Source of the DNA: Candidatus Nezhaarchaeota archaeon WYZ-LMO8
GTDB lineage: Archaea > Thermoproteota > Methanomethylicia > Nezhaarchaeales > WYZ-LMO8
Length of the DNA stretch: 40,252 nucleotides
Direction: 5' to 3'
Assembly: GCA_004347965.1 (NCBI GenBank)
Contig: QNVF01000006.1
Location: 1-40,252 of the forward strand
Part shown: positions 27,001 to 30,000 of the stretch, piece after piece
Layout: each line of letters begins with the position of its first letter
Numbering within the stretch: the first letter of the stretch is position 1
Made by a program: the position numbers

Positions 27001-30000
27001 AGTAATCGGATATTTCCTTCTTAACCACCTCCTTCGAGTAATGTTGCTCAACGAGCTCGTAGTCCACGAAAACACACCAACAAATTATTAAGCCAAGGAG
27101 TCCAATAAAGTTAAATAGAAATTGAATGACTTCAGCTAATAGCTCGTATGTACTCCTTGATCGCGACGCAAGCTTTATAAAGAGTAAGCATAGCAAGACT
27201 GGCAGGTGCTAAGGATGCTTGGTGATCTAGTTTACCTCGACTAGCGACTTAGCACATCTTCAGCTCGAGAGATTTAAGTGGACTATAGAACAAGCATCTA
27301 AGAGCTCCCTTTACTCCAACAAGCTTAAGAGGGTTGATGTCCACTCCCTCAAGGATCTAACGAAATTACCGTTTACAACAAAGCAAGACCTTTTGTCTTC
27401 ATATCCATATGGTGCTTTAGCAGTCAATTTAAGCGACGTTATCCTCATACTCTCGTCTTCTGGTACTACTGGGAAACCAGTATTAACATTCTACACGGAG
27501 AAGGATTACAAGCTGTGGATGGAGAGGTTAGTCAGAAATCTCGAGCTCATTGGGATAGGTAAGGGAGATATCTTCGTAAACACCTCAAATCAAGGGATGT
27601 TTACGGGTCGAGGATATAGCGAGGCAGCATTACTCGCTGGAGCAGCATCTATACCTATAGGCCCAGCATCACCGGAGAGACACTTAAAGTTCATGGTAGA
27701 TCTCGGCGTAACTTCATTTCACGCAATACCATCATTTGCGCTTAAAATGGCTAATTTAGCTAAAGATACTGGGTTGACTGAGAAGCTGAGACTTCGAAAA
27801 GCTGTTATAGGAGCTGAGACTTGGAGCGAATCTACGAGGAGAAGGATAGAGGAATCTCTTAATGTAGACGCATACGACAACTATGGTGTTGCAGAGCTAG
27901 GAGGTCCAGGGATAGCGATTGAGTGTTCAGAGAAGAATGGCTTGCATGTCTGGGCAGACCATTATTTAGTGGAAGTAGTGGACATCAAGACAGGGGAGCA
28001 GGTATGTGAAGGCGAGGAGGGAGAGCTCGTTGTAACAACGCTAACTAGGGAGGCTATGCCCCTCATAAGGTATCGTACTGGAGACATAGTTGAGCTGCTA
28101 CCAAGTGAATGCTCTTGTGGTCTCAAGACACCGAAGGTATCGAGGATCAAGGGCAGAGCTGACGAAATGGTTAAGGTTCGTGGTATAAGTCTATACCCCA
28201 AGATCATAGAGGAAGTAGTCTCCAGCATGCCAGAACTTACAGGAGAATATCAGATCGAGCTTTCAAACATAGACGACATAACCGTGATCGTCGAGGTCAA
28301 GAAGTGGGTTCAAGAAGTTGATAGACTTGTCAACGAGCTCAAGAGCAAGATAAAGGAGTTAACGTTACTCAACGTAGCCATAAAGATTGTATATGAAGGC
28401 AAGATAGAGCACCAAGGAAAAGCTAAGAGAGTTTTAGATCTAAGACAACTATAACGCATTCCTCCCGAGCTTTTAGCAAACTTTTTTACTGTTCTCTTTA
28501 ACCACCTATCTTTAAGACCTTCGGAGGGTTTACTTTGGAAGTTTTAGGCTTAGTATCAAAGAGAAGGAAGATTAGCAAAGACGACTTCTACAAGAAGCTC
28601 ATTTACGGTAAGGGAACAGTATACGGTGTCGACAGGGACGTCCTAGTCAATGCCATAAATAACCTATCATTAGAAATGTCTTCAACGCCATTCGGTTTAG
28701 CGTGCAAAGTTCTCTCAGCAACAGCTAAAAAAGATATTGGAAGCATAGTTGTTCTCAGCGAAGTAAAGCCATTGGCCAAGGAGCTTAGAGAACTGCTGAT
28801 ACTGACTGGCTTAGCTGCAGACGACATTTTAGACCTCCCTTACGCCAAGGACATATTTACGTCGAAGAAGGCTAAGAGGTCCGTTGTCTATAGTCACATA
28901 AGATCAACCGCCGAATGCTTCATCATAAGCTCTCTGCTAAGAGGAGAGATCCCTCAATCGCTAACAGAGAAGATCTTGGAAGCTACATTAATGATTCAAC
29001 CATCAATAGTCAAGGCGGTGGAGAAAGCTGGTAAAGACGGCTTACATGTATGGAACATAGCGTGGAATGCACTATCTTCAGTTAAACCACTTATGGACGT
29101 ACAGAACATCCCCCTAATGCTTTTAGCATTACCTTATGCAGCTCAACAAGTAAAGTTGACTGCTGCCTACATGTACATGAAGAAGAGACTTCAAATCGAC
29201 ATAGATACTTTATTGGCACAGTCGATTGTGAAGTTAAAGTAGCTCCTTCATAACCATTATCGATCAAAAAACTTGGCAACGTTAAGTGAAGCTCGGTGAG
29301 CTTAAGACTTAGAGGCTCTATAATTATTAAGTTTAATAACTATTAATGACGTGAATTTAGGATTGTGAATCGAGAAGGCCATATAGGCTTAACATTGGCA
29401 GTCACTAGCTTGATCCTTCAAGTAATCAATGTAAAATTGCACGAAAGCGTCCTACTAATTTTGCTCTCTACCAGCCTATCGGTACTTCCAGACATAGATC
29501 TTAGACTTGAGGTTAAGCATAGAAGATATACCCACAACATCGTTGTTGCGATACCAATCAGCATCCTTATAGGTCTCCTGACGAGCCATCTTAGCCTAAG
29601 CTTCTGGATAGGCTTCGTAGCAGGTCTCTTAGGCTTCATCTGCCACATAGCTGGCGACGTCTTAACGTACTCAAGCTTCCCACCACTGTGGCCTATAGTC
29701 AAGAGTGAAGTGAGCTTGAAGCTATTTAAGTCCAATGACAAGTTAGTGAACTCCCTCTTCATGTTCATAGGAATATTGCTCTTCTTAGTACTTATTGTTA
29801 AGTTAACTAGTTAGCATTCATTGTGAGGTCTTGTGATCTTCACAGAAGCTTGTTAAGTTAGAAGAGTTAGAGATCAAGCTGGTACCCTGAACCTTTAAGA
29901 CCTCTAACTCGAAGTGAGCTTTCGTGCGTAAGAAGAGGGTGATATTCCTTGGTAGGCACATTATGATGAAGAAGGACTTTGCAGAGTTAGTACTAGCTGG

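Follow-up and report, generated by a model that had tools for sequence, protein, structure and literature searches.

A short overlapping ORF conserved in two archaeal orders suggests a programmed +1 frameshift at the start of a PaaK-like ligase gene

A gene for a PaaK-like adenylate-forming ligase in Candidatus Nezhaarchaeota archaeon WYZ-LMO8 opens without a start codon, and its body lies in the +1 frame of a nine-codon ORF that begins directly upstream; this layout is common to 36 of 36 orthologous loci, including those of a sister family whose proteins are only about 50% identical. From comparative sequence evidence we consider it probable, if by no means certain, that translation starts on the short ORF and reaches the ligase frame through a programmed +1 frameshift at NUU-UAC, where the P-site tRNA would slip onto UUU. 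The window analysed here is a stretch of 40,252 nt from contig QNVF01000006.1, and its relevant features are listed in Table 1. The 36 distinct loci represent eight GTDB species of the window's family, one of family f8, 25 of the sister family f9 and two further metagenome loci, and cover 34 GTDB species, three families and two orders (Nezhaarchaeales and Methanomethylicales). A scan of metagenomes added only four full loci, two of them new sequences.

Table 1. Features at the start of the ligase gene, with positions counted along the window.
Feature	Position	Strand	Remarks
TATA-like box TTTATAAA	27174..27181	+	41 nt upstream of ATG 27215
Shine-Dalgarno (SD) AGGTGC for ATG 27215	27204..27209	+	duplex with 16S 3' end -9.2 kcal/mol
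Short ORF MLGDLVYLD-stop, proposed true initiation site and zero frame	27215..27244	+	register kept in 36/36 distinct loci
Internal anti-SD-complementary stretch GGTGATC	27221..27227	+	2 nt before shift codon, duplex -14.8 kcal/mol
TAG of ligase frame, shuts frame upstream	27228..27230	+	9/10 distinct family loci and 3 loci of sister-family genus g28
Proposed shift site G-TTT-AC	27230..27235	+	GUU UAC in short-ORF frame, UUU ACC in ligase frame
PaaK-like adenylate-forming ligase frame	27231..28454	+	Pfam AMP-binding and AMP-binding_C_2, no canonical start before codon 55
Stop (TAG) of short ORF, end point of unshifted ribosomes	27242..27244	+	11-14 nt after first T of TTT in 35/36 loci

The ligase frame comprises 407 codons plus a stop (28452-28454) and is open throughout. 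Its first ATG, GTG or TTG is the TTG at 27393, 54 codons in, and upstream of 27231 it reads GTG(27222)-ATC-TAG. The survey's finding had described this startless opening, together with an ATG-initiated ORF that ends in TAG one base out of register and a GTG that soon runs into the in-frame TAG, and all of these were confirmed in the sequence. Both Pfam domains of the adenylate-forming (AMP-binding) enzyme superfamily were detected in the product, namely AMP-binding (2.5e-16, 59.9 bits vs. a gathering score of 29.9) and AMP-binding_C_2 (3.4e-14, 53.3 bits vs. 25), a make-up shared with PaaK phenylacetate-CoA ligase and coenzyme F390 synthetase. Among NCBIfam models, those for PaaK match best, but the scores reach only about half of the equivalog cut-offs (336.2 vs. 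700 bits for NF041878 and 317.8 vs. 646.3 bits for TIGR02155), and judged by these scores the ligase is PaaK-like at the family level only. It further differs from PaaK in its start, since the canonical initiation codon and the N-terminus M-x-[YFI]-[WF]-N..E, present in 77 of 79 wider PaaK loci, give way to the layout described here. Genes for Na+/solute symporters adjoin the ligase gene in the sister family.

In every genome the gene callers shorten the ligase, the loss ranging from 2 to over 100 codons. Taken at face value, the call in the window would mean that nothing unusual occurs and that the protein begins at TTG 27393, the earliest canonical start in frame, with 54 untranslated codons ahead of it. 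These codons, however, hold the family's N-terminal motifs LQLxRLKW and PFTTK and are conserved at the protein level with many synonymous differences, and the first canonical start of the frame varies between codons 2 and 54 across the family orthologues. We therefore regard a start at this TTG as highly improbable.

The short ORF is strictly retained. In agreement with the earlier survey, all eight orthologues of the window's family, from three genera, share ATG-nnn-GGT-GRT-YWA-GTT-TAY in one register. The stop is TAG in five loci and TAA in three, and the codon before the stop is variable (GAC, GAC, GGC, AGC, GGC, GAG, AAT and AGA). The ORF starts 16 nt before TTT in this family and 19 to 34 nt before it in the sister family; the positions found (-16, -19, -25, -28, -31 and -34 nt) always differ by multiples of three, so that the frame relative to TTTAC is kept. 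From the first T of TTT to the short-ORF stop, the distance is 11 nt in 33 of the 36 loci, 14 nt in two and 38 nt in one. In 8/8 family loci, a box of the type TTTATAA, TTTATTA or TTTATAT starts 39-44 nt ahead of the ATG, and, given archaeal promoter geometry, the box in the window is likely the promoter of the short-ORF/ligase transcript, which would imply a short leader.

Programmed +1 frameshifting calls for two overlapping frames and for a usable initiation site in front of the first. Across the 36 loci, the ligase body invariably lies +1 of the short ORF, and the upstream ORF always has a canonical start; in 35 loci this -1-frame start is preceded by an anti-SD duplex of -7 kcal/mol or better, calculated with the 16S 3' end GGAUCACCUCCU taken from genomes G005 and G039. 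Start codons from which the motif can be reached occur in the -1 register in 36/36 loci, which exceeds chance, in the ligase frame in nine and in the third frame in 14, and a ligase-frame start with a duplex of -7 kcal/mol or better was found in a single locus. There is no consistent ligase-frame start across the 36 loci. Where the ligase frame is shut by TAG just upstream (nine of ten distinct family loci and three f9 loci), its translation from further upstream is ruled out, because the TAG precedes TTT. Variation exists: in L007, AAG replaces TAG, with an open frame from the GTG onward, as the survey had noted along with a TTG as third codon in L006, likewise seen here. Canonical codons near the motif speak against the slip; in six f9 loci an ATG or GTG stands one or two codons ahead of TTT, and in L040 as well as L007 a GTG stands three codons ahead of it. 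Canonical starts were found in the controls, namely eight paralogous loci of the window's family, three f9 paralogues, 12 homologues from outside the class and 77 of the 79 wider PaaK loci. All loci that show the layout group in a single clade in a quick tree (SH-aLRT 99). L009 may represent a lineage that returned to a canonical start, which would be a loss of the layout if L009 falls inside the clade.

Three non-standard routes to the full-length protein had been proposed in the survey's finding: a +1 frameshift, read-through of the UAG and initiation behind GGUGAUC. The wider comparison favours the first, makes the third less likely (no near-cognate among the window's first 15 ligase-frame codons, a weak SD in 7/36 loci) and speaks against the second. 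Read-through would start at GTG 27222 and decode the UAG at 27228-27230 as a sense codon, and L007, with its AAG and its frame open from the GTG, could be taken to fit. Yet ARAGORN finds no tRNA(CUA) with introns allowed or not, although in a genome that is 93% complete such a tRNA could be unassembled; PylS reaches 31.5 bits, far below its cut-off of 178; TAG ends 155 of 551 long ORFs and is an ordinary stop; and the GTG itself has no SD at working distance. The sister family lacks a consistent upstream start, and in genus g28 the ligase frame contains both TAA and TAG and no start. Stop-codon read-through or pyrrolysine insertion is rejected as a general mechanism, given that neither a tRNA(CUA) nor a PylS above cut-off was found, and given the common TAG stops and the stops of g28, and for the window itself we regard read-through as barely conceivable.

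At the point where the two frames meet, the motif TTTAC is found in 35 of 36 distinct loci and TTTAT in the remaining one, although the two families have little else in common across the N-terminal ten codons. Phenylalanine is encoded by TTT in 36/36 loci and never by TTC, whereas TTT makes up 45% of Phe codons in the long ORFs of the genome (3612 vs. 4466). The variant TTTATT of L008 retains Tyr in the short-ORF frame and has Ile instead of Thr in the ligase frame. We place the putative shift at G-UUU-AC because this motif is invariant over two orders, unlike the codons that precede the short-ORF stop. The base before TTT is G in 22 loci, C in 13 and T in one, giving GUU, CUU or UUU as P-site codon, each of which would still form two or three base pairs once shifted by +1 onto UUU; a P-site codon of the type B-UUU is hence present in 36/36 loci, with the quality of re-pairing predicted from the codons. 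Re-pairing from GUU to UUU carries a first-position mismatch. The zero-frame A-site codon is UAC (UAU in one locus), which is neither a stop nor rare (TAC 4902 vs. TAT 3113 in long ORFs). A slowly decoded A-site codon, i.e., a stop or a rare codon, is accordingly absent, and the usual cause of the pause at +1 sites is missing, because the codon is a common Tyr codon.

The combination appears to be specific to this gene. Scanning the 6798 NTTTAY sites of the 1.35-Mb genome recovered the signature at the ligase gene alone, and none of the 24 long ORFs with at least 30 startless codons shows a comparable SD with an in-frame UUU at its opening. Reading GTTT as a single step yields uninterrupted products in the window (P0001) and in L039. 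A search for a natural homologue fused in frame, using residues 1-50 of the predicted L039 product, gave two candidates, none of which scored; such a search needs shared five-residue words, and the called proteins of the clade are truncated.

The pattern of substitutions points to the same site. Directly after TTT, single-base differences within the window's family are synonymous vs. nonsynonymous in a ratio of 38:21 for the ligase frame and 5:34 for the short-ORF frame; the corresponding values in f9 and f8 together are 106:147 and 13:193. As the synonymous excess moves to the ligase frame right after TTT, the change of frame sits at the motif and not at the short-ORF stop. Over the four codons before TTT, f9 and f8 show the opposite of the simple expectation, with 299:235 in the ligase frame and 160:280 in the short-ORF frame. 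This may reflect constraint on the SD-like stretch, or (G/E)G(V/I/M)(A/V) may be translated in some lineages.

Alternatively, the two frames could be joined in the RNA, either by polymerase slippage or editing, with one base lost or two gained at the T run that the motif includes, or by removal of an intron of 3n+1 length. This T run, however, has just three bases (four in L052), and known polymerase slippage tracts are far longer. Conserved helices of a bulge-helix-bulge are likewise lacking, as RNAalifold predicts none for f9 and f8 and only -0.43 kcal/mol within the window's family. Contigs from one metatranscriptome (X1) span 27248-28277 without indels or joints; they begin 3' of the shift site and thus speak for the rest of the gene. 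Three runs of raw reads contributed 0 reads. Altogether, joining at the RNA level appears very unlikely.

Immediately upstream of the motif lies a stretch complementary to the anti-SD, and in the window its duplex beats every other 20-nt window of the ligase gene. The sister family has (T)AAGGAGGAG as its equivalent, which pairs with another part of the 16S tail than the stretch of the window's family. A duplex of -9.6 kcal/mol or better stands directly before the motif in 28 of the 36 loci, while seven have a weak one of -5.6 to -6.3 kcal/mol (those of genus g25 with the type AGAAGGGATAGY, plus L055), which is close to the median value of randomly chosen windows in the gene concerned. In the AGGAGGUGAUCC register, the stretch sets GUU at position 14 and UUU at 15. 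Over the loci the shift codon occupies aligned position 13-15, and the ordinary start codons of the genome peak at 14-16. This spacing looks like that of initiation and, like the weak duplexes, is a weak point of the frameshift reading.

From the observed layout and its conservation we infer the slip and its exact codon as follows. Translation of the ligase would begin at the ATG of the short ORF, served by its own SD, and six codons on, GUU (27230-27232) would occupy the P site and the Tyr codon UAC the A site. Some ribosomes would then slip by +1, the peptidyl-tRNA re-pairing with UUU (27231-27233), followed by ACC, and read the ligase frame to 28451, whereas those that do not slip would terminate at the UAG three codons later. 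With the shift codon in the P site, GGUGAUC or its sister-family counterpart AAGGAGGAG could pair with the 16S rRNA 3' end, and this pairing probably holds or strains the ribosome at the shift codon, thereby aiding the slip.

The same arrangement could also be read as (re)initiation of the ligase frame at or beside UUU by a non-cognate codon, with the internal SD-like stretch setting the P site, through free binding of 30S subunits or through termination-reinitiation, in which a ribosome would be drawn back after ending at the short-ORF stop 11 nt downstream. Several observations fit: the SD-like stretch has the genome's start-codon spacing (14-16, with UUU at 15), the short-ORF stop follows within 11-14 nt in 35/36 loci, a canonical or near-cognate codon of the form R-T-N stands two codons before TTT in some lineages (ATG or GTG in five f9 loci), and the ligase-frame differences before TTT in f9 and f8 are synonymous more often than expected. 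UUU, on the other hand, mismatches AUG at two positions, and the window's first 15 ligase-frame codons contain neither ATG, GTG or TTG nor any near-cognate (CUG, AUA, AUU, AUC, ACG, AAG or AGG), so that a downstream-frame start near the upstream stop, as termination-reinitiation requires, is not found. The TAG that precedes TTT in the window's family and in g28 rules out any start ahead of TTT in these groups. Moreover, the SD is no better than a random window in 7/36 loci, free initiation leaves unexplained why a single short-ORF frame persists through length changes, and no other gene of the genome combines an SD with a startless in-frame UUU. We consider (re)initiation at or beside UUU unlikely on balance. 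Its narrower form, in which the rRNA-complementary stretch would position ribosomes, either fresh ones or ones just released from the short-ORF stop, to begin or resume at UUU itself with no start or near-cognate codon, seems quite unlikely, and to our knowledge no initiation at a UUU-like non-cognate codon has been described as a mechanism in prokaryotes. If true, a UUU start of this kind would be an initiation mode undescribed in prokaryotes.

Further candidate elements were not supported, and two other routes were dropped. The hairpin of 4-6 bp proposed in the survey's finding found no statistical support: 3' of the motif, RNAalifold gave no consensus pairs for f9 and f8, and the window's family yielded only the weak energy given above. 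A 7-bp helix with the short-ORF stop in its loop, spotted by eye in several f9 genera, had 64.0% of cells paired vs. 61.4% in shuffles, 70 of 500 shuffles being as high; it may be present in sub-clades but is unsupported as a conserved element. A -1 route from a third-frame TTG behind the internal SD is available in f9 (11/36 loci, ten with a strong duplex), yet it is absent from the window's family, g24, g25 and g28. Shifting at the tandem AGG-AGG of f9, which would explain (G/E)G(V/I/M)(A/V), is contradicted by the TAG before TTT in g28 and the window's family.

Among known systems, the +1 slip proposed here resembles that of prfB, the gene of bacterial release factor 2, in which a programmed +1 frameshift by a CUU-to-UUU slip at an SD-like spacing of 3 nt provides autoregulation via the A-site UGA. 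In both cases, a short zero-frame ORF precedes a body in +1 at a widely conserved site, the P-site tRNA slips or would slip onto UUU (from CUU in 13 of the 36 ligase loci), and an anti-SD-complementary stretch lies upstream within the ORF. The ligase site differs by its archaeal hosts, its common Tyr sense codon instead of UGA in the A site, its SD-like stretch at 6-7 nt from the shift codon (counted from the GGAGG core) instead of 3 nt, and its location at codon 6-12, i.e., at the very start of the gene. Termination-reinitiation, with overlapping stop and start codons and tethering to rRNA of the viral TURBS type, resembles the site in that the short ORF ends near the opening of the ligase frame and a stretch complementary to rRNA lies upstream, but the ligase frame offers no start or near-cognate codon.

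In archaea, the comparable example is fucA1 of Saccharolobus solfataricus, for which a 2021 review describes a -1 shift on A-AAA-AAT, accompanied by rare codons and a stem-loop and found in two strains while relatives have a full-length gene (PMC8211752). Both are archaeal enzyme genes in two overlapping frames that need recoding, whereas the ligase site would involve +1 and is kept in 34 species of two orders. The same source also describes a "hungry" mechanism, in which slippage takes place in the P site with an empty A site (PMC8211752); the ligase site is reminiscent of such hungry-codon or leader-peptide sensing, as a single invariant Tyr codon follows the slippery codon in a very short leader ORF. 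TAC is not rare here, and an effect of the Tyr supply is an idea only. Still, the invariant UAC/UAU ahead of an aryl-acid-type ligase might mean that slow decoding under scarce Tyr-tRNA raises the shift. A bold reading, compatible with the slip, would have the +1 shift act as a tyrosine-supply sensor that turns on the ligase.

According to the 2021 review on archaeal recoding, one frameshift had been demonstrated in a cellular gene, the -1 shift in fucA1, +1 shifting had merely been suggested for a haloarchaeal virus, and more cases were wanted (PMC8211752). Our literature searches on frameshifting and archaea combined with a PaaK-like ligase or with ribosome profiling retrieved no report of the site. 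Annotation pipelines would need a rule for the truncated calls of the ligase. The site bears on +1 shifting at a sense codon and allows asking whether archaeal ribosomes use SD-anti-SD pairing in elongation, for which natural variants are at hand, including GUU, CUU or UUU as shift codon, an SD-like stretch that is strong in some loci and weak in others, either TAG or a sense codon before the motif, and the canonical start of L009. If the slip is real, the ligase gene would be the first cellular gene of archaea with a widely conserved +1 frameshift, preserved since Nezhaarchaeales and Methanomethylicales last shared an ancestor.

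The layout recorded in the survey's finding, namely a short ORF, a TAG that closes the ligase frame and 54 following codons without a start, agrees with the sequence of the window. The first ATG, GTG or TTG of the PaaK-like frame, which is +1 to the short ORF, is the TTG at 27393, and the 54 codons ahead of it include the family N-terminal motifs LQLERFKW and LPFTTK. The product has AMP-binding and AMP-binding_C_2 domains and its top NCBIfam scores are to PaaK models, yet at about half their cut-offs; we therefore call it PaaK-like and assign no substrate.

Features of the ligase locus in the window
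Feature	Position	Strand	Remark
Divergent ORF, up to 511 aa	25661-27196	-	real start probably well inside the listed ORF
Box TTTATAAA	27174-27181		upstream of the short ORF
AGGTGC	27204-27209		5 nt ahead of the short-ORF ATG
Short ORF MLGDLVYLD-stop	ATG 27215, TAG 27242-27244	+	zero frame
GGTGATC	27221-27227		within the short ORF
GTG-ATC and closing TAG	GTG 27222, TAG 27228-27230	+	PaaK-like frame, one base ahead of the short ORF
PaaK-like frame, open	from 27231 to stop 28452-28454	+
ORF of 235 aa	28535-29242	+	directly 3' of the ligase

The divergent ORF and the ligase locus have a promoter region of about 150 nt in common, and the 235-aa ORF has a conserved counterpart in the same position in two relatives (L007 and L008), where it begins LEILGLV. 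Metatranscriptome depth is zero in bins 27071-27241; a contig over the 5' part of the gene starts at 27248, just past the short-ORF stop, although a contig end cannot indicate an RNA end.

A whole-genome search located the ligase orthologue in eight of the nine family genomes with a close match (own genome counted; three genera), and a metagenome search added four loci, two with new sequences. All family loci keep ATG-nnn-GGT-GRT-YWA-GTT-TAY in register. The stop types of the short ORF (TAG in five, TAA in three), the variable codon before it, and the AAG (L007) and TTG (L006) variants were as first reported. The nearest homologues outside the family, in families f9 and f8 of the same class (about 50% protein identity), show the same layout in different sequence letters. 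Here, the short ORF lies in the -1 register, starts with ATG, GTG or TTG behind its own SD (GGAGGT or GGGGTGA), traverses (T)AAGGAGGAG or the weaker AGAAGGGAT, and reads B-TT-TAC with a stop two codons on, while the ligase frame reads [TAA]-GGA-GGA-GTT-GCG-TTT-ACA without a consistent start. The original observation is thereby confirmed and much extended, to 36 distinct loci (34 GTDB species).

The motif reads TTTAC in 35 of these 36 loci and TTTAT in the other, preceded by G (22), C (13) or T (1), and the short-ORF stop begins 11 nt past TTT in 33, 14 nt in two and 38 nt in one. A start reaching the motif in the -1 register occurs in all 36, and in 35 its anti-SD duplex is -7 kcal/mol or stronger; the corresponding numbers are 9 and 1 for the ligase frame and 14 and 10 for the third frame, where the ten reflect a single TTG that adjoins the internal SD in some f9 loci. 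Short-ORF starts lie at -16, -19, -25, -28, -31 or -34 nt from TTT: the length of the short ORF has changed between lineages, its frame never. The f9 TTG in the third frame, 5 nt before TTT and abutting the internal AGGAGGAG, is present in 11 of the 36 loci (e.g., L039, L044, L047, L053, L062; ten with the strong duplex) and opens an ORF of about 16 codons; the window's family is without it. Of the 6798 NTTTAY sites in the window's genome, a single one carries the signature; separately, 24 stop-to-stop ORFs of at least 200 codons have their first ATG, GTG or TTG at least 30 codons in.

Pairwise counts of synonymous to non-synonymous single-base differences, which are descriptive only as the loci are related, gave 38:21 in the ligase frame and 5:34 in the short-ORF frame after TTT in the window's family, and 106:147 and 13:193 in f9 and f8. 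Right after TTT, synonymous differences are thus frequent in the ligase frame and very rare in the short-ORF frame. Since this pattern starts after TTT and the codons before the short-ORF stop vary freely, the frames join at the invariant motif and not at that stop. Initiation at TTG 27393 was rejected, as it would throw away a conserved N-terminus evolving synonymously.

A programmed +1 frameshift at NUU-UAC is the reading we favour, as somewhat probable, for four reasons: all 36 loci use TTT for Phe, whereas TTC is commoner in the window's genome; the sole motif change (L008) retains Tyr in the short-ORF frame and turns Thr into Ile in the ligase frame; a P-site tRNA on GUU, CUU or UUU would still have two or three pairs once shifted by one base to UUU; and GTTT read as a single step yields uninterrupted products. 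Of the survey's three options, frameshifting is hence preferred, placed at the motif, and initiation is retained as a rival, but read-through of the UAG from GTG 27222 is rejected: ARAGORN found no tRNA(CUA), introns allowed or not, PylS was far under the cut-off in a profile search, TAG is an ordinary stop (155 of 551 long ORFs), and the ligase frame of genus g28 (f9) contains TAA and TAG and lacks a start.

Where TAG directly precedes TTT, as in 9 of the 10 distinct family loci and in three g28 loci, the ligase frame cannot be initiated upstream of TTT; in the window, the first 15 ligase-frame codons, from TTT on, contain neither a start codon nor a near-cognate one. The internal stretch can pair with rRNA. 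The 16S 3' end, GGAUCACCUCCU, was read in one family and one f9 genome (G005, G039) and is absent from the window's assembly; GGUGAUC and AAGGAGG are complementary to different parts of its tail. Directly ahead of the motif, 28 of 36 loci have a duplex of -9.6 kcal/mol or stronger, which in most of them ranks within the best 0-9% of same-gene windows. Counted in the register of AGGAGGUGAUCC, positions 14-16 are where the ordinary ATG starts of the window's genome peak (a match of at least 5 bases was present in 183 of the 471 confident ORFs); the shift codon lies at 14 and UUU at 15. Pairing would keep the ribosome with exactly the shift codon in the P site. Mainly because this spacing is that of initiation, SD-positioned (re)initiation of the ligase frame stays a live, though rather unlikely, rival. 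However, in seven loci (genus g25, mostly with CUU, and L055) the duplex is no stronger than -5.6 to -6.3 kcal/mol, close to the random-window median, and under (re)initiation these loci would have neither SD nor start codon. RNA-level joining of the frames seems highly improbable, and little weight is left for remaining explanations.

Some observations speak against the +1 shift. UAC is a common codon in the genome, so that the usual pause is unexplained. Over the four codons before TTT, f9 and f8 show 299:235 in the ligase frame and 160:280 in the short-ORF frame, contrary to this reading and the reverse of the window's family (8:41 vs 16:26); this may be an SD footprint, or (G/E)G(V/I/M)(A/V) may be translated as well in part of the f9 lineages. 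Moreover, ATG or GTG stands two codons before TTT in five f9 loci, and GTG one codon before in L041.

A further point against the shift is that the hairpin proposed at the short ORF was not supported by consensus-structure and shuffle tests. Several f9 genera (L039, L044, L047, L061, L062, L064) have a 5-7 bp helix from the motif AC, of the ACACCC..GGGUGU type, whose loop encloses the short-ORF stop (CUGA, UUAA, UAAU), with one compensatory change (L043 and L045) and no significance across the whole locus set.

The layout was not found in the family paralogue (MEVRYWEP, ATG start; L011-L018), the second f9 paralogue (L067, L068, L077), 12 out-of-class homologues (identity at most 46%) or 79 bacterial and archaeal loci of the wider PaaK family, 77 of which have a canonical start just ahead of the M-x-[YFI]-[WF]-N..E motif. 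In a quick maximum-likelihood tree, all layout loci form one clade (SH-aLRT 99), within which L009 (G002:C6, genus g3) nests on a long branch next to the window's family (SH-aLRT 91). This gene, at 53% identity the nearest to the recoded family clade, starts canonically at a TTG behind GGAGGT/AAGGAG, and its N-terminus is of the usual K-F-W-D..E type; as a natural revertant or replacement, it could serve as in-frame control. The simplest history on this tree would be a single origin before the split of the two orders and a single loss. As to gene context, Na+/solute symporter family genes (PF00474) lie 3' of the ligase in f9 and f8 (e.g., L039, L045, L048, L037, L038), and also 5' in L037-L039; in L045 and L048 a DUF763 gene lies upstream. 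The symporter context was not found in the window's family, and neither ORF flanking the window's ligase has a Pfam or NCBIfam match.

In prfB, the SD lies at a short spacing from the shift codon and a stop in the A site is the defining feature. The ligase site resembles prfB in its short zero-frame ORF, the proposed slip onto UUU and the internal SD-like stretch, but lacks both the A-site stop and the spacing; we would class it as a variant of programmed +1 frameshifting outside the prfB type. Our literature search, with subscription-only papers outside its reach, found no report of this site. A 2021 review of recoding in archaea names a single demonstrated case of frameshifting in a cellular gene, the -1 shift of fucA1; +1 shifting is suggested there only for a haloarchaeal virus, and a magnesium chelatase is given as a candidate (PMC8211752). 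The same review describes hungry-codon shifting (section 7). The tiny leader ORF places one invariant Tyr codon right behind the slippery codon, ahead of an aryl-acid-type ligase, which invites the guess, by analogy, that slow Tyr decoding might raise the shift in the hungry-codon manner.
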